From contig JASFYR010000029.1 of NCBI GenBank assembly GCA_045047115.1, positions 1 through 42,206 on the forward strand: a stretch of 42,206 bases of DNA, in the 5' to 3' direction. Positions 284 to 8,921 of this stretch are shown in pieces; within the stretch, counting starts at the first letter, position 1; every line of letters starts with the position of its first letter. A model generated the notes under the pieces. The model was not told where the DNA came from. It worked only from the letters and a program-made list of their open reading frames with translations, and did no database searches. The translations under genes were made by a program, and so were the position numbers. This DNA comes from Sulfurospirillum sp. Its GTDB lineage: Bacteria; Campylobacterota; Campylobacteria; Campylobacterales; Sulfurospirillaceae.

Positions 284-381
284 GGAGGGTATATGACCCT
301 GGTGGGCATCACGGGCTTCAAACCCGATGTCTGGGCGGTTGACCGTCTGGAGGTAGGTTCGATTCCTACACCTTCTCGCCA
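284..381 (+). tRNA. selC: tRNA-Sec (anticodon TCA)
   Basis: Anticodon loop CTTCAAA (316-322) in a CGGG/CCCG stem, long variable arm, T-arm GTAGG-TTCGATT-CCTAC and GCCA 3' end. A TAAAAT -10 candidate lies at 266-271. Confidence 0.93.
316..381 (+). repeat. attL core (66-bp direct repeat, 3' part of selC)
   Basis: Identical to 12592-12657 and begins at the anticodon loop. Confidence 0.97.
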
Positions 382-1262
382 TCTTTTAAGCTATCAAATA
401 CTTTAGAGATAACAGATTTACTAATTTCAGGTTTTATGGTAATGTATTTTTGAGTTATCTCTATATTTGTGTGACCTAAAGCATAAGATACGTGCTCTAT
501 GGGCAAAGAGAGAAAATTGATAGCATAAGTACCTAAGAGATGTCTTATGTCGTGTAAGCGAATATAGGGCAAGTTATAGCACTTCAAAAGGCGAAACCAA
601 GCACCCCTTAAATCTTTATATCTCGTTTGAGTGTTTGGATTCGTAAAAACATAACCTTTTGGATATTTTGTGTTTTGGTTGATACACTCTTTTAAGAATA
701 TTTTATATAACCTTGTATAAAGAGGGTCTGTCATCATATATTGCATATTTTTACGCACTTTGTTAATCTTAGCAGGTATATAGTAGAGTTTCTGCTCTAA
801 ATCTACCATATCCCAAGTGAGACAAAGAACTTCACTTCTGCGACGACCGTGGAGAAGAAAAAAGAAAATATCACAATAAACAGGCTCATTATAGTTTATA
901 AGTGCATTTATAAAATCTTTTTGTACTTCCAAAGAGAAATTAAAGTACCTGGTATTATCAAACTTTGGTAACTCTATGTCCAAAGTGGGGTCATAATCAA
1001 TCAATCTTAGTTTTTTAGCAAATCTAAAATGATTTTTTAAAACTGTAAGAATGTTTTTTACTGTTTTGATTTTATACTCTTTGGAAACAAGAGCATTGAC
1101 GAAGAGCTGCACATCAAGATAAGCGATAGTATCAATAGATTTTATACCTAAAGTATCTTTTATGTGTTTATTATAATAACCAAAATTTGTTTTATATGTT
1201 CGCTCACTATGGAGGACTTTTACATGATTAAAATACTGTTTTGAGATGTTATTTAAAATCAT
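366..1262 (-). CDS. Tyrosine recombinase / phage integrase
   Basis: Catalytic motifs GRRRSE, HDIRH, LGH and TQKY. Adjacent to attL, with an AGGA RBS at 1270-1273. Confidence 0.93.
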   Translation of the reverse strand: MILNNISKQYFNHVKVLHSERTYKTNFGYYNKHIKDTLGIKSIDTIAYLDVQLFVNALVSKEYKIKTVKNILTVLKNHFRFAKKLRLIDYDPTLDIELPKFDNTRYFNFSLEVQKDFINALINYNEPVYCDIFFFLLHGRRRSEVLCLTWDMVDLEQKLYYIPAKINKVRKNMQYMMTDPLYTRLYKIFLKECINQNTKYPKGYVFTNPNTQTRYKDLRGAWFRLLKCYNLPYIRLHDIRHLLGTYAINFLSLPIEHVSYALGHTNIEITQKYITIKPEISKSVISKVFDSLKDGEKV

Positions 1263-1271
1263 GTAAATATC

Positions 1272-1466
1272 CTAAATTTTTCTAACAAAACTTAAAAATT
1301 CTAAAAATAATAAAAACTGTTCATTTTTTAAATTATCTATTTTGATATCAAGTGAAAAAGTACTAATATCTTTTAAAATCAATTCATCACGAATATATAA
1401 ATATTTTTCAAGTTGCAAAGTTGACTTAAGTATTTTTTCTTGTAATTTATCTAATTTATCTTTCAT
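1272..1466 (-). CDS. Hypothetical phage protein (64 aa, helical)
   Basis: AAGGAG RBS precedes the ATG at 1466 (MKDKLDK...), which is a better start than 1484. Confidence 0.65.
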   Translation of the reverse strand: MKDKLDKLQEKILKSTLQLEKYLYIRDELILKDISTFSLDIKIDNLKNEQFLLFLEFLSFVRKI

Positions 1467-1481
1467 TTTAAACTCCTTTTG

Positions 1482-1489
1482 CATTTATA
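1482..1489. repeat. 8-bp target-site duplication CATTTATA (left copy)
   Basis: Identical to 3708-3715 and directly flanks the terminal inverted repeat. Confidence 0.92.
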
Positions 1490-3707
1490 GGGTATTCGCA
1501 AAGTAAGTGACTTTTTAACATATTTTGCTATCCCAATTTTTTACCATTCTTGATAATCCCTGAATATCAACACCTACATTTATTTCATTTTTTTTATCAA
1601 ATTTTGGCTTTTTCTTTTTATGTAAATTAGTAGAATAAAGCATCTTTGCTCTAATGCTTTCAAAGCTATAGCTTCTACCCATTCTATCAACATGACGAAT
1701 TACACTATTCATAGCTTCTGTATAAGCATTTGTTACAGGATAATCAAAGTAGGCAAATATTTCTTTGTGCCAATTTCCTAAAGCTCTAACTAAATCAGAG
1801 AAATATGGTTTAACTTCGCTTGTGAGTTCTTGCTCAAATTTCAAATATCTATCATAAGCTTCCTCTTTATTTTCAGCTTCGTATATTTCAAAAAACTGCT
1901 CTTTTAAATAATACATTTTTGCTAATATTGGATAATTATTTTCCCAATATGAGATTAAGAAACTTTCTCTATCGTTAAGATTATTTTTTCTTTTAAGAAG
2001 AAGAAATCTATCATTTTTTAAATCTATTCTTTGCTTAGAAGTAAGAGAACTTTTTAGCTCTTTACGGTATTTTTCTAATGCAGAATTTGCCATTTTTACG
2101 ACATGAAATTTATCTATAACAACTATTGCTTTTGGTAATACTAGATTAACAGAATCTCTATAAGGCTTCCACATATCAATAGTCACAACTTTTATTTTTT
2201 CATTATCTTTTATACCTCTTAAATATTTAACAATAGTAGTTTTATTTCTATCTTTAAACATTTCAATAATAGTTCTATCTTTAATATTAGTTATTACTGC
2301 TCTTGGTTTACCAGATAAATGAATTTCATCTATACCTAAAATTACAGGTGTTCCAAATACATATTTTTTTTCTAAATCTAAAATATTGTTTTTAAATATT
2401 TTTCTAATATTGCCCTCACTAACACCAGTATCATCTGCTATATATGTAAATGGCTTTAGTAAAGATTGTTTTTTTATATATTTTACTAATCTAGTAGTCA
2501 TATTATGGTTACTAGAAATATTTGGTAAAGTATCTTGAAAAAACTTATTGCACTCATGACATTTGTAACCTTGAACTTTAATCATTAATCCAACTCTTTT
2601 ACCCCTTATAGGCAAATCAAAATAAAACTGATTTCTAACACCCTTTTTTCTATAATAACTACTATTACAATGTTTACAACTTGATGGTATTGTTTCACAG
2701 TTCAATTTAATATTAATATCATGCTCTGTTTCTTCTGTATCTATAATCGAATAATCATCTAAATTCAAAATTGGCATATAAGTATCCTTGTTTAACACAA
2801 CATCTATAGCATTTCTAAAAGATATGCCATTATTTTGTAATGACATCATTTTTTCATATCTATTTGGACTTTTTAATTTTTGTTTTTCAAATCTACTTTC
2901 ACTTTCCAAATGAATACCAAAACCACAAAAAACACAACCAGTCCTAGTTTCTGCTTTTAAAAGAACTCCATCAATATATTTATCATAATAACAATCTGCA
3001 AATTTTATATTATTAATTTTTGCATATTCCCATATATCTTCATCATTCCAACCAGTTCTTAAAAATGGATATACTTTTTTACCGTCTTCTTTTCCGTATA
3101 AAGCTAATTGTTTCCTAAGTGCAGACTCTCCACTCATCAAACCTATTAAAGGCTTCATATCATTCTGTTTTTGCCATTTTTCAATAGGATTTTTCTTTAA
3201 AATTGCACAACACTTAGAATTAACATCAAAATCTTGTTTGACTAAATATCTCCATTTAACTGGTAACTTCCCACTACCATTCTCATAACCGTTTAATCTT
3301 ATATCTTCTAATATATGGCTTTTTGTATATTTTAATTCATTAACTTTCTGAGAAACTTCTTTACTAACAAGTGGAAAACCATATTCTTTAACAACTGTAT
3401 TAAAATTCATTTTAGGCTTAACCCAAATAATATTATTATGAGATTTAACATATTTAATAATGTCAATATCTTCATTTGTTGTATTTGAGAAAACTGCTTG
3501 AATATTAGGAAATATACTTCTAGCTAAATGTAATAAAACGGTGCTATCTTTTCCACCAGAAAAACTTACAAATATTTTTCCATTATTTTTTTGATATTCA
3601 TTTTTTATAATATCTTCTGATAATTTTATTTTTTCTAAAATACACATATTTTTCCTTTATTAGATTTATGGTTAAAATTTAAAAAGTCACTCTTTTTACG
3701 AAGACCC
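1490..3707 (-). mobile_element. ISL3-family insertion sequence (2218 bp) with a PAPS-reductase-like/transposase fusion
   Basis: Terminal IRs at 1490-1518 (GGGTATTCGCAAAGTAAGTGACTTTTTAA) and 3679-3707 (reverse complement GGGTCTTCGTAAAAAGAGTGACTTTTTAA) match at 24/29. An 8-bp TSD and GG ends are typical of ISL3. Confidence 0.92.
1515..3647 (-). CDS. Fusion protein: N-terminal PAPS/APS-reductase-family domain (aa 1-290) plus ISL3 transposase (aa 291-710)
   Basis: N-terminal part has the SFSGGKDS PP-loop, KCCAILKKNP and RTGCVFCGFG. C-terminal part has a zinc finger (CKHC...CHEC), an HTH-like segment, GIDE, IDMW, DKFHV and TNAYTEAMN. Confidence 0.9.
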   Translation of the reverse strand: MCILEKIKLSEDIIKNEYQKNNGKIFVSFSGGKDSTVLLHLARSIFPNIQAVFSNTTNEDIDIIKYVKSHNNIIWVKPKMNFNTVVKEYGFPLVSKEVSQKVNELKYTKSHILEDIRLNGYENGSGKLPVKWRYLVKQDFDVNSKCCAILKKNPIEKWQKQNDMKPLIGLMSGESALRKQLALYGKEDGKKVYPFLRTGWNDEDIWEYAKINNIKFADCYYDKYIDGVLLKAETRTGCVFCGFGIHLESESRFEKQKLKSPNRYEKMMSLQNNGISFRNAIDVVLNKDTYMPILNLDDYSIIDTEETEHDINIKLNCETIPSSCKHCNSSYYRKKGVRNQFYFDLPIRGKRVGLMIKVQGYKCHECNKFFQDTLPNISSNHNMTTRLVKYIKKQSLLKPFTYIADDTGVSEGNIRKIFKNNILDLEKKYVFGTPVILGIDEIHLSGKPRAVITNIKDRTIIEMFKDRNKTTIVKYLRGIKDNEKIKVVTIDMWKPYRDSVNLVLPKAIVVIDKFHVVKMANSALEKYRKELKSSLTSKQRIDLKNDRFLLLKRKNNLNDRESFLISYWENNYPILAKMYYLKEQFFEIYEAENKEEAYDRYLKFEQELTSEVKPYFSDLVRALGNWHKEIFAYFDYPVTNAYTEAMNSVIRHVDRMGRSYSFESIRAKMLYSTNLHKKKKPKFDKKNEINVGVDIQGLSRMVKNWDSKIC

Positions 3708-3892
3708 CATTTATATTTTTGTGGAAAACTTACACGAATAAAACGCTTTTTTTTGTTATGTTCTTCTACAATAGAATAAATATCATCAGAGGTGTAACCA
3801 TTCGGAACATAAAAAAAGCTGTAATCATCCAAAATTACTTTAGAAAAGAAAGGATCATAAGGCAAAGTAAATATTATAAGTTTAACTCGCAT
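3635..3892 (-). CDS. Small phage protein whose 3' end was replaced by the IS
   Basis: ATG at 3892 overlaps the end of rep. Removing the IS and one TSD restores ...SFPQKYKCKRSLK*, whose TGA overlaps the ATG at 1466. Confidence 0.65.
   Translation of the reverse strand: MRVKLIIFTLPYDPFFSKVILDDYSFFYVPNGYTSDDIYSIVEEHNKKKRFIRVSFPQKYKWGLRKKSDFLNFNHKSNKGKICVF
3708..3715. repeat. 8-bp target-site duplication CATTTATA (right copy)
   Basis: Identical to 1482-1489. Confidence 0.92.
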
Positions 3893-5102
3893 AGTCAAAA
3901 TCCATATTAAAATAATTTGGAGGGATATAATCCATATCAAGCAAACCTCTTTCGATAAGCTCATTTTGTACGAGTCCATAATGCTGTAAATTACAATACT
4001 CCAAATCTAAATTTTTATAATATTCAAAGAGTTGATAATCTTTGTAAGACAAAACAGGTTTTGAAATATCAAAAGATATACCATTTTTAACAATAAAAAC
4101 AGGGATACGAGATGATTTTTTCTCTTTTAAAACAGGTTTGCGGTTATCGTAATTTATAGAACTTGTTACTTTAAAACTTTTTTTACTCCAAAGAGTGCCA
4201 TATTTATCAACTATCTCTAAAAGTTTATTGGTGTTAGGATCAACAAAAACAGATATTTCTTTATCTCTGTACATCCAAGTAAGCTCATTGAGCGTGTAAC
4301 GACCCTTTAAGGCTCTGTAAACATCTAAAGATACTAAAGTCCTAGAGGTGTATATCCTGCATATTCCGTGCAGTATATACCAAAGAGTTAAATCAGTTAT
4401 TTTGTCATCACCGTATCTTAAATCATCAAGAGTTTTTAAGATGTATTTCATAAGATAAGCGACAGGGTTTTTGATATTTACTTCTAATTTACCAAGAGGG
4501 AAAGGATAAAAACGCTTTATAACTTTGACGATATTATCTACATATTGTTTAGGGATAAAAATACTAATATGAAGATGAGGACAGCCGTCTTTATGTGGCT
4601 CAATAACTCTAAAATAGACTCTATCAGATTTTGGAATCTTACACCAAGAACGATGAGTCAATAATCTTGAAAACATCTTTGAGAGTTGTTTACTGGCTTC
4701 TTTTGGGAAGTACTTTTTTCTGTTTGACATAGGATTGATAAACTTGATTTTTTTCTTTGTTATAGGATGTTTGCAAGTAAAAAGAAACTCTCTTCCATTG
4801 TAGTTTTTATTGTTTATAACTTTACCACTTGAAAGAGTCTTTTTTGGGTGGTAAATGCTAGGCAAAGTAAGAGTCAAAAATATGTTTTGTAAATCTCTTG
4901 ATTTAGCATATGAGTAGAGAGAATTAACCCTATTGTTTATCTCTGCAATGTATCTGTTTGAGTTTATATAACTATTTTTTGTAATATCTGATAAAGGGAT
5001 ATGTTTATCATCAACTACTAAAAAATTATTGTCTAAAAAGAGCTTGTTTTTTTCTATTTTATCTAGTGCTAACTGACGCATATTTTTTGTTAAACCAAAC
5101 AT
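3882..5102 (-). CDS. Rolling-circle replication initiator (HUH endonuclease, gpA-like)
   Basis: FLTLTLPS motif I, EPHKDGCPHLH (HUH) and YLMKY (YxxxY) catalytic motif. Confidence 0.85.
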   Translation of the reverse strand: MFGLTKNMRQLALDKIEKNKLFLDNNFLVVDDKHIPLSDITKNSYINSNRYIAEINNRVNSLYSYAKSRDLQNIFLTLTLPSIYHPKKTLSSGKVINNKNYNGREFLFTCKHPITKKKIKFINPMSNRKKYFPKEASKQLSKMFSRLLTHRSWCKIPKSDRVYFRVIEPHKDGCPHLHISIFIPKQYVDNIVKVIKRFYPFPLGKLEVNIKNPVAYLMKYILKTLDDLRYGDDKITDLTLWYILHGICRIYTSRTLVSLDVYRALKGRYTLNELTWMYRDKEISVFVDPNTNKLLEIVDKYGTLWSKKSFKVTSSINYDNRKPVLKEKKSSRIPVFIVKNGISFDISKPVLSYKDYQLFEYYKNLDLEYCNLQHYGLVQNELIERGLLDMDYIPPNYFNMDFDYAS

Positions 5103-5103
5103 C

Positions 5104-6258
5104 TTAAAAGCTCATTTTAGAAAGAGATTTAATTGACAAAACTATTGAAAAAACCTCTTTTCTATTTGTAACAGTAGTATGTTCAGTAATTTTATTTAGA
5201 ATAGGTACATATTCAATAATAGGAATATTTGCAATAGTGTTTTGAATAGTTGTTTGATTTAAGCCACCAAGCAAAAACAGAGAATTTTTGGAAAGATTGC
5301 AATGAGTTTTTATATGTTTTGATGTAGTTTTTGGAGTGAGAGAAGAATCTAAAATATTTTGCACAAATATCTCCAAATCAAACTGAACAGAATTTTTAGA
5401 AACAGAAACATTTGTAAAATACATCTTTAATCCTACATCTTTATAATTATAAGAATTTTGCGTAGTAGTGGTATTATCTTTTGTGCTAGTTGTAAAGGTT
5501 AGAAAAGGGATGTTTGTCGTGCTCTCTAACAAACTAGGTTTATTATCTAAAAGCGTAATTTGAGGGCTTGTGAGAATTTTAGATATATCTTTAGATTGCA
5601 ATAAATGCAAAAGTGAATAAAATTGAAAACGACTATTTAAAGTAGAAGGTATATTTACTGTACTAGTTAGAATTGATAAATAATAAGAAGGATTAAATTT
5701 CAATATGCTAAAATCCAAACCAGCATTTTTTAATTTATCTTGATTTGTACTAAGTACAACAACATCAATAACAGAAGAGTAAAAGGATTTATCCAAATTA
5801 ATTATTTGATTTTGTATCTTTTTAAATGTTTGAAAATCTGAAATAAGCAAAATACGACCACGAGAAATGAGATATTTTACATCAGGATACAACTTATTAA
5901 AAAAGTCATTTATATCATTTTTTGATAAGTTATTATAACGAATGATAAAATTATCGATAACAACTTTTTTCTTACTAAGTGCAAAAGGATCATAGATATA
6001 TACAGTATTTAGAGAAACACTATATGCAAGATTATTATATTTTAAAATATTTTTGAGCAAATCAAAAGTGATTTTTTTATCTTTGAAATTGAGAACAGGC
6101 AATGACAAAGAAATAGTTTTATCAACATTTGAAGATACAACAATATTAAAACGGCTATTATCAGCAACAATAGAAGCAAAATCAGATAGAGTTATATTTT
6201 TAAAATTATTTGCTATCAGACTTGAAAAAAGCAGAACGAACAGGACGAGAATCTTCAT
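5104..6258 (-). CDS. Phage secretin (pIV-like)
   Basis: Signal peptide and secretin motifs (SPQITLLDNKPS, YKDVGLK, LLGGL, IPIIEYVPIL). Follows the Zot-like gene. Confidence 0.85.
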   Translation of the reverse strand: MKILVLFVLLFSSLIANNFKNITLSDFASIVADNSRFNIVVSSNVDKTISLSLPVLNFKDKKITFDLLKNILKYNNLAYSVSLNTVYIYDPFALSKKKVVIDNFIIRYNNLSKNDINDFFNKLYPDVKYLISRGRILLISDFQTFKKIQNQIINLDKSFYSSVIDVVVLSTNQDKLKNAGLDFSILKFNPSYYLSILTSTVNIPSTLNSRFQFYSLLHLLQSKDISKILTSPQITLLDNKPSLLESTTNIPFLTFTTSTKDNTTTTQNSYNYKDVGLKMYFTNVSVSKNSVQFDLEIFVQNILDSSLTPKTTSKHIKTHCNLSKNSLFLLGGLNQTTIQNTIANIPIIEYVPILNKITEHTTVTNRKEVFSIVLSIKSLSKMSF

Positions 6259-7291
6259 TTTTTTTACCCCCAGAAAGTAAAGTGAATTGATTTAAAAAAC
6301 CCAAATTTTGACACTTCAACAAATAAGAAGTTTTAGAAACAGTAGTTTCTTTAAAAATAGATGAGCAGGTAAACTCTTTTATAACAAAAGCGAGAGAGTT
6401 TGGAGTTAATACAAAATCATAATTTTTAAAAGTACAAGTAAAACCTGAACAAGTTATATAATAATAATTTGTATTATTATTTATTTCTTGAGATAATCTT
6501 GCAGATTTTTGCCGAAGAAAACCACCATTACCGCTTGGAACATATATTTTATCTCTTTTAACAGCCAAATCACGTGACGGACTAGAAACATTTTTTTTAA
6601 CATTTGGATCGCCTTTCATAAAATTTGTAACAAAATGAAACATTATAGAAACAATTATAACACCTATCAAAAAATAAATAAGATATTTTTTAATAACATT
6701 TGGAGATTTAACACTATCTCCTGAATGATACAAATCAAAAATTTCTTTAGATTTTTTAAGTTTTTTAACACTAGCTTGACTTTTAGCACTCATACGACTA
6801 TCTATAAAAATTCTATATTTGAAAGTATTTGAAAAAAGTAAAAGAGTTGTAGGAACAGCACGAATGAAATATTCAGCAAATTTTTTATACTTAGAATCTA
6901 TAAGAGCTAAATTTTGCGTAATAAGAAGAAAATCTATAAAAATATGTCTATGATAAGAAAAGAGCCAAACAAATACAGGATTAAGAGCGTCAAAAAAATT
7001 ATGACTTTCATCAATAACAAAAAGTGTTTTATAATATCCTAATTTTTTAACTAAATCAATCAAATCATCATCAGTTGAGTCTTTGTCTTTATAAAGATTA
7101 TATAAATCTATAATATTTAATTGAAACTCCTCAAAATCAAATTTTTTTATCTTACTAGAAAGTTTAAAATCAAATTGGTCTATATTAGTATATATAAATT
7201 GATGTTTATTTGATTTCACATCCTCAAATATTTCATTTACTGCATAATATGTTTTACCAGCTCCAGGGACACCTACAAGATAGATAATCAT
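6206..7291 (-). CDS. Zot/pI-like morphogenesis ATPase
   Basis: Walker A GVPGAGKT, Walker B FVIDESH, YHRH, LITQN and a central TM helix. Confidence 0.92.
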   Translation of the reverse strand: MIIYLVGVPGAGKTYYAVNEIFEDVKSNKHQFIYTNIDQFDFKLSSKIKKFDFEEFQLNIIDLYNLYKDKDSTDDDLIDLVKKLGYYKTLFVIDESHNFFDALNPVFVWLFSYHRHIFIDFLLITQNLALIDSKYKKFAEYFIRAVPTTLLLFSNTFKYRIFIDSRMSAKSQASVKKLKKSKEIFDLYHSGDSVKSPNVIKKYLIYFLIGVIIVSIMFHFVTNFMKGDPNVKKNVSSPSRDLAVKRDKIYVPSGNGGFLRQKSARLSQEINNNTNYYYITCSGFTCTFKNYDFVLTPNSLAFVIKEFTCSSIFKETTVSKTSYLLKCQNLGFLNQFTLLSGGKKNEDSRPVRSAFFKSDSK

Positions 7292-7653
7292 TATATTAAC
7301 TTTAATGCTTTATCAATTAAATCTTTTTTTACCTGCATAGCATAAACCCATAAAATCTTAGAAAATAAAAATAAAAGAGCAGAAACAATAAAAGGTAAAG
7401 AAGACAAAAAAGCGTCAGTAAAACCCATACAATGTAATAATCCCCAAAACTTAGGCAAAATATTAGAAGGATCAGAAACGGAAATATTATTAACAGAATT
7501 TATCAAAGTATGTACTAAATTATAAAAAGAATATAAAGAAGTCAAAAGAAAACCATAAAAAGAAAGAACTGAAGTATAATAAGCACTAAGAATAAGAATC
7601 TTAAGACCTTTTACACCAATAAAACCAGCTAAAAAAGTTAAAATTTTAGTCAC
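7291..7653 (-). CDS. pVI-like minor coat membrane protein
   Basis: 120-aa hydrophobic protein located between the pIII-like and pI-like genes. Confidence 0.7.
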   Translation of the reverse strand: MTKILTFLAGFIGVKGLKILILSAYYTSVLSFYGFLLTSLYSFYNLVHTLINSVNNISVSDPSNILPKFWGLLHCMGFTDAFLSSLPFIVSALLFLFSKILWVYAMQVKKDLIDKALKLI

Positions 7654-7655
7654 AA

Positions 7656-8921
7656 TTAATTACTCCCCTGATTAAATTTAATTCCAAGCCAAAAAATACG
7701 AACTGATAAAAACAAAAATACAAAACTAAATATTAAATACAAAATAGGCTTAAAAATAGAAAAAGAAGGGCATAAATCAATATTAATAGTTTTGCCAAAA
7801 GCTGTACTAGTAAAAGAAGGATCAACACCAGAAGGTAAAGAAAAATCTGATTCAGAGAAACCATTTTCATATATACTTATATAATTATCAAACTGTTCTG
7901 TAATAGTAGATAAATCAGTTTGCACATTATTATAAAAATCAGTAATAGAACCAAATCCCAAATCACCCATAAAAGAATCACCTGAAATAGTATCTTTTAA
8001 ACCGTCAATTTTATTTCCAAGAGAATCAAAACCATTTTGATTAACAGATTTTAAAGATTGTAAATTACTATTTATCAAATTATTATTATTATTAACAGCT
8101 TTTAAAGAACTATCAATACTAGATAACTTAGAATTCGTTGATGACTGAATTAGTCCCAAATTATCAAGTTTTTGCCCTAAAAAATTTGTATTTTGTGCTA
8201 TCATTTTGTCAGTTTGTTTTATTATAGTTAAAGATACATTATTAATAGCATCTACATTTGTCCTTCCAACAACTCCAACTGATGAATTATCATCTAAATT
8301 ATTCTGAGTAGGAGTAAATGACAAATTATCATCTTGAATATCTCCAGTAAAATTATTATCAGCTAAAACAATATTAGAACGCTCTTGATAAGAAATAAAA
8401 GAAATACCATTAATACAAGTCATTATATTTGAATCATATTCAATATTATCAATTGTAACAATGGTAGAAATATAAGGAGCATATTTCAATGTAGAGCCAA
8501 TAGATTCACAATTTGTTTGAGCATCTTGCATATAATCTCCAGATGTAGCATTTGTACAATTACCATCGGATAAAAGCATATTATTAACTCCAGGACAATC
8601 AGAATTTGAGGGAGGAGGAGCAATAGAAGAAGTTAAGACACAAGTAACATTTCGAACTTTATAAGAACCAGCTTGACAAACTACATATGAAGGATCAGTA
8701 ATTTTAGATTCATCAGGTCCTTTTAGGACAGTTCCCCAATAATTATTTGAAGAATCGTGAACAGAAGAAAAAGAAACCATAGTATAAGAAACAAAATGAT
8801 TACCATCCCACCAATCAAAAGTAGTACCAACAGAAGGACAACCGTCAGGCTTATGAAGAACAGTAGTATCAGCAAAGAGAGAAAAAAATAAAAATGAGAA
8901 AATCAAAAAAAATTTTAACAT
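7656..8921 (-). CDS. pIII-like adsorption protein
   Basis: Signal peptide, Cys-rich N-domains, N/D/S-rich linker and coil, DLCP motif and C-terminal TM. Syntenic position. Confidence 0.8.
   Translation of the reverse strand: MLKFFLIFSFLFFSLFADTTVLHKPDGCPSVGTTFDWWDGNHFVSYTMVSFSSVHDSSNNYWGTVLKGPDESKITDPSYVVCQAGSYKVRNVTCVLTSSIAPPPSNSDCPGVNNMLLSDGNCTNATSGDYMQDAQTNCESIGSTLKYAPYISTIVTIDNIEYDSNIMTCINGISFISYQERSNIVLADNNFTGDIQDDNLSFTPTQNNLDDNSSVGVVGRTNVDAINNVSLTIIKQTDKMIAQNTNFLGQKLDNLGLIQSSTNSKLSSIDSSLKAVNNNNNLINSNLQSLKSVNQNGFDSLGNKIDGLKDTISGDSFMGDLGFGSITDFYNNVQTDLSTITEQFDNYISIYENGFSESDFSLPSGVDPSFTSTAFGKTINIDLCPSFSIFKPILYLIFSFVFLFLSVRIFWLGIKFNQGSN

Follow-up and report, generated by a model that had tools for sequence, protein, structure and literature searches.

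Background

Insertion sequences (ISs) of the ISL3 family, as delimited in ISfinder, have by definition terminal inverted repeats and an 8-bp target-site duplication, and a transposase of roughly 400-450 aa is ordinarily their only product. Cargo-carrying ('transporter') ISL3 elements, such as ISPpu12, are also known. Bacterial ISs are usually described either with a bare transposase or, in the transporter forms, with separate passenger genes. Here, we describe an ISL3 element from Sulfurospirillum sp. whose single open reading frame (ORF) joins an enzyme domain resembling 3'-phosphoadenosine-5'-phosphosulfate (PAPS) reductase to the transposase. The element lies in a stretch of 42,206 nucleotides (contig JASFYR010000029.1 of assembly GCA_045047115.1), the whole of which is referred to as the window. 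The initial annotation of the window knew of no described in-frame fusion to this enzyme family, and no description of an ISL3-PAPS reductase fusion was found in those parts of the literature that were accessible to our search.

In most respects the element conforms to the ISL3 family. It encodes a DDE_Tnp_ISL3 domain together with a zinc ribbon and a helix-turn-helix (HTH) region, is associated with AT-rich 8-bp duplications, has its stop codon in an end repeat, and its terminal repeats begin with GG(G/C)T(A/C)TTCG, as in ISL3 elements. It departs from the family in the size of the transposase, which reaches 710 aa by means of an N-terminal enzyme domain of 290 aa. Unfused relatives among our matches were mostly ~400-470 aa long, and transposases 60-70% identical to that of the window lack the enzyme domain and reside in ordinary ISL3 elements.

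A cargo gene in a comparable position was found in Vibrio phage K256 (OZ195684.1). This phage contains a complete ISL3 element (L067, 891-3374; repeats 19/24, duplication GAAAAGAG) with a DNA methyltransferase ORF ahead of the transposase gene. As in the window element, a gene of DNA-modification type is located between the left repeat and the transposase gene, in the same orientation, and is mobile together with the element. However, the cargo of the K256 element is a separate ORF overlapping the transposase start, whereas in the window element cargo and transposase form one polypeptide, for which putative descendants lacking the DDE domain exist (see below). The same transposase and methyltransferase were also matched in 17 Vibrio phage records (H4-H20) among the matches listed. 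Transporter ISs are recognised by a non-transposition gene that lies inside the repeats and is mobilised with them, and this applies to the window element as well, although here it is a fused domain and not a separate gene that is carried.

Mobility of the fused unit

The element spans positions 1490-3707 of the window (2,218 bp). This unit, including the enzyme domain, is bounded by ISL3-type repeats and by an 8-bp duplication (CATTTATA). The initial annotation had placed 29-bp repeats matching at 24 positions, as well as the duplication, around the complete 710-aa ORF, with the stop codon inside a repeat, and all of these features were recovered exactly where it had located them (Table 1). 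The repeat pair 1490-1518/3679-3707 is the longest inverted pair within 1300-3900. The chance of finding such a repeat was estimated at ~2e-4 (150 x 150 offsets) and that of an 8/8 duplication at 1e-4, giving a joint value of ~2e-8; in 60 out of 60 shuffles, the best repeat did not exceed 20/29. Within the ORF, the PAPS_reduct domain is followed by the ISL3 zinc ribbon and HTH region and then by the ISL3 DDE domain.

Relatives of the element were inserted as the same unit of enzyme and transposase at other sites. A metagenome contig (L007) encodes a 735/739-aa full fusion, identical to the database protein P0002 and 61% identical to the window protein; its repeats (19/22) lie outside the whole ORF and are accompanied by a duplication of their own, GAATATAA. 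The same repeats, with a third duplication, AATTTTAT, were present in a viral contig (L049). In this case the ORF stops after the HTH region, but the DNA past the stop still encodes the C-terminal tail of the transposase, which indicates that the DDE core was deleted internally. In both L007 and L049, a repeat of the same type is found upstream of the enzyme domain.

A fourth copy was detected in a metagenome run (X1), in which contigs ~91-93% identical to the window element matched it from exactly 1490 to 3712, that is, up to five bases beyond the repeat end at 3707, and then continued into unlike DNA. From these flanks it can be concluded that the copy occupies a different insertion site. 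One of the contigs spans the enzyme/transposase junction (2753-3297) without gaps. Among 36 changed codons that could be read in this copy, 21 were synonymous, 15 were nonsynonymous and none was a stop, these codons being a subset of the changes, beside which another 88 differences exist. The initial annotation had proposed that the enzyme domain moved within the element and was not a gene hit by an IS, and had suggested a search for copies with other duplications. Three repeat-bounded insertions with three different duplications, together with the other flanks of the X1 copy, bear this proposal out.

The two halves of the fused protein

The transposase half scored 253 bits against the NCBIfam model transpos_ISL3 (cut-off 180) over residues 319-671. 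Residues D440, D491, D512 and E644 are kept in the window protein, each of them being conserved in 167-169 of 172 ISL3 transposases, and so are the zinc-ribbon cysteines C324, C327, C363 and C366 (170-171 of 172). Among all positions conserved in at least 93% of these transposases, only one deviates (G360, mostly R elsewhere). The zinc finger and DDE motifs noted in the initial annotation are therefore both kept, but the Pfam model HTH_Tnp_ISL3 gave no match to the window protein at E <= 0.01. In the structural model described below, the HTH region comprises four helices at 385-429, with strands at 299-371, and relatives carry PF13542.

Two features of this half deserve mention. Firstly, an internal methionine, Met291, aligns with the start methionine of unfused relatives, although it is absent in P0002; judging from the alignment, translation of a product consisting of the transposase alone could begin here. 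Secondly, the transposase is a mosaic: its identity to the unfused transposase P0003 amounts to 90-98% over residues 501-650 (window 1698-2147) but to no more than 44-68% over residues 301-500, which suggests that fused and unfused ISL3 elements have recently recombined.

Table 1. Features of the element, its protein product and the surrounding prophage (positions in the window)
Feature	Position	Strand	Evidence or remark
Target-site duplication, left copy, CATTTATA	1482..1489	.	sequence read and checked; includes ATG of 70-aa ORF 1272..1484(-)
Terminal inverted repeat, transposase-distal end	1490..1518	.	24/29 match to other end; holds stop codon 1515-1517
Enzyme-transposase fusion, single 710-aa ORF	1515..3647	-	ORF list, Pfam, NCBIfam
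DDE_Tnp_ISL3 catalytic domain, residues 437-667	1647..2339	-	Pfam 2.4e-56
ISL3 zinc ribbon (residues 321-366) and helical HTH region (~380-430)	2358..2687	-	Zn_ribbon_ISL3 5.3e-06; model
Internal Met291 (ATG 2777..2775), AAGGA (2789..2785) 7 nt upstream	2775..2789	-	alignment and sequence
PAPS-reductase-like PP-loop/Fe-S enzyme domain, residues 1-287	2787..3647	-	Pfam PAPS_reduct, residues 25-224, 5.4e-15
Terminal inverted repeat upstream of ORF start	3679..3707	.	start codon 32 nt inside repeat
Target-site duplication, right copy, CATTTATA	3708..3715	.	sequence read and checked
Small prophage ORF, 5' part (114-aa frame 3635..3979)	3716..3979	-	frame enters element
tRNA-SeC gene, anticodon tca	284-377		overlaps 3' end of integrase gene
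Prophage integrase	366-1262		overlaps tRNA-SeC gene
Rolling-circle replication protein (Rep)	3882-5102		inovirus-like module
pIV-type secretin	5104-6258		inovirus-like module
Zot/pI-like ATPase	6206-7291		inovirus-like module

The enzyme half contains the motifs SGGKDS at 30-35, C146-C147, C219 and C238-x-x-C241, in which S30, G32-K33-D34-S35, C146, C147, C219, C238 and C241 are invariant in 51/51 aligned relatives. A 20-nt match (70%) between 1491-1510 and 2899-2918, considered as a possible internal relic of an older left end, falls within the stretch coding for CGFGIHLE, which is conserved in all enzyme relatives, and was for this reason taken as chance. Residues 1-430 were modelled with AlphaFold on the basis of an alignment of relatives, with a predicted local confidence (pLDDT) of 91 and a predicted template-modelling score (pTM) of 0.80. 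The best Foldseek matches of this model in PDB were CysH/adenosine-5'-phosphosulfate (APS) reductases (probability 1.00, E ~1e-6, TM by target 0.56-0.63).

The fold is shared with CysH (PDB 6vpu, 1sur and 2goy), but identity to the CysH sequences is 11-18%. The CC...CxxC spacing of the cysteines resembles that of the Fe-S ligands of APS reductase. As for membership among the assimilatory PAPS/APS reductases, the fold agrees, but the curated CysH-type models remained far below their cut-offs (TIGR00434 (cysH), 34.2 vs 165.1; PRK02090, 33.6 vs 154; APS_reductase, 22.2 vs 235) and the broad Pfam domain alone passes. Moreover, the C-terminal catalytic Cys motif of CysH was not seen in the window enzyme, which, unlike assimilatory CysH, has the canonical SGGKDS PP-loop and occurs in phages and mobile elements, whereas CysH is encoded in sulfate-assimilation operons.

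DndC, SspD and BrxP are DNA-directed PP-loop enzymes of phosphorothioation and BREX type 4 systems. Their PAPS-reductase superfamily domain, which acts on DNA in defence or modification, belongs to the same superfamily as the window enzyme. Weak PADLOC matches were obtained for BrxP (36.6 bits to the window protein) and SspD (39.5 bits to the relative P0036). Partner genes of Dnd, Ssp or BREX systems were found neither in the element nor beside the family members examined. A sequence search against solved structures returned only a marginal CysD match (E 0.006). In a protein atlas, feature scores were <=0.80 and can serve as leads only, and the structural rows were PAPS_reduct clusters.

Distribution of the fusion and of its DDE-less relatives

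Full fusions were found in three lineages, 61-66% identical to each other and represented by the window protein, P0001 (708 aa, 65% identical to the window protein) and P0002 (735 aa, 61%). The latter two were the full-length relatives found among 335 matches of a word-indexed protein search. The P0001 cluster includes three distinct 708-aa fusions (P0001, P0270 and P0271), several of them on contigs of 2,218-2,442 nt, which is probably what a repeated element gives in assembly. No relative was found in viral contigs searched with the window protein alone. The fusion is a rare lineage, not a one-off, and its presence in three such lineages disagrees with the single loss of a stop codon that the initial annotation had considered as the opposite outcome.

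A more numerous set of ~50 proteins, 420-482 aa long, matches window residues 1 to ~420 at 40-49% identity. These proteins consist of the enzyme domain, a zinc ribbon and a helical region and have no DDE domain; we will call them the DDE-less family. Pfam detected Zn_ribbon_ISL3 in only 4/51 and HTH_Tnp_ISL3 in only 2/51 of them. Nevertheless, a hidden Markov model trained on the C-terminal parts of the 47 remotest members matched 179/180 ISL3 transposases (E <= 1e-3, best 3e-20), and residues C324, C327, D344, C363, C366, T384 and R386, near-invariant in the transposases, are invariant or near-invariant in the DDE-less family. Around the distant DDE-less genes no ISL3-type repeats were found, only AT-rich chance matches.

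The DDE-less genes reside in phages and genomic islands, two loci being from metagenome-assembled genomes (MAGs) of Sulfurovum and Sulfurospirillum. Their neighbours include HATPase_c_3, GIY-YIG, GmrSD, NERD, SIR2, integrases, N6/N4 methylase and HNH. In one locus (L021, 4576-7296), 4 nt separate the end of a C5 cytosine DNA methylase gene from the start of the DDE-less member that follows it, an arrangement that looks operonic, with MksE, GmrSD-N and an integrase nearby. One protein (P0083, 634 aa) has, besides the enzyme domain, zinc ribbon and HTH region, an extra C-terminal domain of ~150 aa to which no type was assigned.

Truncated transposase products and transposase-derived DNA-binding proteins are a general concept. 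In these, the N-terminal DNA-binding part is kept after loss of the core, and the same is true for L049, for the related deletion form P0273 and for the DDE-less family; the retained module is, however, attached to an enzyme in our case. It is unlikely that DDE-less members act as regulators of transposition, because most of them are without repeats.

The enzyme domain also occurs without a zinc ribbon. PAPS-only relatives are located in phage replication/recombination modules, some of them beside Dam, Dcm or D12 methylases, and in P0095 (L024) an N6/N4 DNA methyltransferase domain is followed by a PAPS-like domain. On a Helicobacteraceae MAG contig (L048, 3991-4974), a PAPS-only gene is preceded, ~1 kb upstream, by an IS110-family transposase. 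Another filamentous-phage-like contig with Zot and secretin genes (L038, 2333-5560) carries a stand-alone PAPS-like gene directly after the secretin gene.

Role of the enzyme domain

We consider it fairly probable that the element is an intact and probably autonomous cargo-carrying ISL3 element, the cargo of which, a PP-loop ATPase of phage type with the PAPS-reductase fold and a four-Cys Fe-S motif, has become fused to the N-terminus of the transposase. According to this explanation, the DDE domain would move the element in the usual ISL3 way and the enzyme domain would be dispensable for cutting and joining. The enzyme would be a modifier of nucleic acid, most likely DNA, working by ATP-dependent activation and subsequent transfer of sulfur or similar. 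Its activity would ride with the element, tethered to DNA through the zinc ribbon and HTH of the transposase. It might be of use to the phage or island that carries it, for instance as a safeguard against restriction; in the sister element of phage K256, the same slot holds a DNA methylase. The fusion would have made the enzyme and the DNA-binding module one selectable unit, and repeated internal deletions of the DDE core would then have given rise to immobile proteins of enzyme, zinc ribbon and HTH, which now make up a diverged family found in phages and islands of Campylobacterota.

A bolder version, which we regard as possible but rather doubtful, is that the fused protein is a DNA-modifying enzyme that the ISL3 zinc ribbon and HTH direct to specific DNA sequences and that, in the mobile form, marks DNA at or close to the element ends or throughout the genome of the carrier phage. 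After the loss of the DDE domain it would have been retargeted, yielding solo sequence-directed DNA-modification enzymes (sulfur insertion or similar) of phages and islands. If true, an enzyme would have exapted the DNA-binding domain of a transposase, and the mobile form that marks the transition would still exist today.

Several observations weigh against the fused-cargo explanation. Only one copy of the element is present in its genome of 2.14 Mb (41 contigs), where no second ISL3 transposase was found either. The fusion was present in only 1/401 genomes of the order, the window's own, and in 0/50,697 phage records (at least 80% of the fusion held). It was also missing among the best 150 of 1.84 billion representatives of 50% clusters, a level of clustering that may hide fusions beneath shorter representatives. 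Similarity to DndC, SspD and BrxP is confined to ~50-70 residues around the PP-loop, full-length profiles being without a match, and the neighbourhoods of the DDE-less genes are variable, with no fixed partner. Finally, two PAPS-only proteins terminate no more than a few residues away from the junction. P0269 (295 aa) shares 88% identity with window residues 1-286, and P0272 (289 aa) shares 92% identity with residues 1-288 of P0001. These proteins may stem from two-ORF versions of the element, from native phage genes that exchange sequence with it, or from remnants. Fused and unfused states therefore interconvert or recombine, and selection may not act on the fused state as such.

From P0269 and P0272 it might be argued that the fusion is an incidental and labile state of a two-ORF cargo ISL3 element, in which the stop between the cargo and an overlapping transposase start was lost. 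The enzyme would then function equally well in free and in fused form, with no special role of the fused protein. The persistence of Met291 and of AAGGA ahead of it, as expected of a former transposase start, points in the same direction, and so do the overlapping but separate cargo and transposase ORFs of the Vibrio phage element. We nonetheless find this unlikely. Three lineages as divergent as those described above keep the fusion with the same junction. The DDE-less proteins keep the zinc ribbon and HTH on the enzyme, with zinc ligands invariant or near-invariant in 51 sequences, which argues that enzyme and DNA-binding module are selected as one protein. Moreover, a two-ORF version of the window element was not seen at the DNA level, P0269 and P0272 being known as proteins alone.

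The enzyme could also be integral to transposition, either by modifying the element ends or target DNA or by gating the reaction according to ATP, sulfur or redox state. This would come close to the initial annotation, which had proposed a new class of IS coupling transposition to nucleotide or sulfur chemistry. The fusion does put the enzyme beside the part of the protein that presumably binds the terminal repeats, the model of residues 1-430 (pTM as given above) predicts that enzyme, zinc ribbon and HTH form one rigid unit, and the fusion is conserved across deep divergence. However, closely related transposases (60-70% identity) manage without the domain in ordinary ISL3 elements, the invariant enzyme motifs persist in ~50 proteins with neither DDE domain nor repeats, and in phages related enzymes are found by themselves or as fusions with a DNA methylase. 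Together with the methyltransferase cargo in the same slot of the K256 element and the PAPS-only proteins, 88-92% identical, that end at the junction, this makes an integral role very unlikely and the proposed coupling less likely than a fused cargo. The better fit is a cargo enzyme that has been joined to the transposase, because in the sister ISL3 element this slot is occupied by a DNA methylase; the window element thus reads as a variant of the cargo-carrying ISL3 elements whose cargo became fused, and not as a new class.

Order of events

As for the history of the fused cargo, from the sequences we read the following order: a cargo gene placed ahead of the transposase gene would have been fused to it in frame, and repeated loss of the DDE domain would then have led to the immobile family. 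In the tree of enzyme domains (96 rows), the first to branch off were a large group of PAPS-only proteins and four further proteins that were either PAPS-only or fused to a methylase. They were followed by the pair of window and P0001 fusions (support 84) and then by a clade (99) of the P0002 fusion and three DDE-less forms, plus the main DDE-less family. The fusions thus make up two basal branches of the clade bearing zinc ribbons, and P0095, the methyltransferase-fused protein, branches just outside the fused clade. In the tree of zinc ribbon and HTH regions (76 rows), the DDE-less family formed one long branch, which clustered (96) with the fusions and with the five unfused transposases closest to them, apart from 42 other transposases. 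The junction is identical in the fusions and the DDE-less family and includes the first residues of the transposase. In addition, three different deletion products were observed in the P0002 lineage (P0025/L049, P0273 and P0024). The trees and these three deletion forms suggest that the DDE-less family descends from the fused element.

It should be noted that the trees were obtained by 'quick' searches, with moderate support of key nodes (80-84), and that the recombination evident among these genes (mosaic identity; P0025 vs P0002) weakens inference from them. Event counting alone would favour the reverse order, in which the immobile family of enzyme, zinc ribbon and HTH is older and the mobile fusions arose by later ISL3 recombination through the shared zinc ribbon and HTH. 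On the enzyme tree, two regains of the DDE domain are fewer steps than four or more losses, and DDE-less proteins outnumber the fusions by far (56 vs 3 rows) and are much more diverse. The evident recombination among these genes likewise speaks for this order. Still, we give the reverse order very little credence. The zinc ribbon and HTH of the family must derive from a transposase, and since the junction includes the very first residues of the latter, a whole transposase gene behind a cargo gene is the simplest source. L049 and P0273 are direct deletions of the DDE domain, with the transposase tail or repeats remaining, and it is the zinc ribbon and HTH of the family that form a single long branch beside the fusions, not the converse.

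Prophage setting and insertion site

The element is hosted by a filamentous-phage-like prophage. This prophage appears to be integrated at tRNA-SeC, because the tRNA gene overlaps the 3' end of the integrase gene (Table 1). Its inovirus-like module spans 3882-8921, and the ORFs after the Zot/pI-like ATPase are without family match. The insertion point lies between two small prophage ORFs: without the element, the 114-aa frame 3635..3979 would stop a few codons on, overlapping the start of ORF 1272..1484, as judged by eye. An IS-free allele of the prophage was sought with the right flank (3716-5102). In the 401 genomes of the order, this flank was matched at no more than ~65-70%, and solely within the replication gene, and the phage collection gave only one short unrelated match to this flank and no empty site. 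A promoter scan returned 11 sites, as compared with 16.7 expected from shuffles.

Implications

In the element described here, enzyme and transposase are one polypeptide, which is demonstrably mobile. The stages of its domestication are all visible today, from the cargo of a sister element through the mobile in-frame fusion and repeat-bounded elements with a deleted DDE domain to an immobile family. In this final stage the family has diverged so far that Pfam no longer recognises its ISL3 DNA-binding module. Such a domestication trail is unreported. It also provides a handle on what serves as substrate for the products of the 'PAPS reductase' genes, which are widespread in phages and frequently classed as auxiliary genes of sulfur metabolism: the covalent attachment of a sequence-specific DNA-binding domain argues that these enzymes act on DNA. 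The fused element and its relatives thereby offer a testable case of mobile elements supplying DNA-targeting modules to other enzymes.

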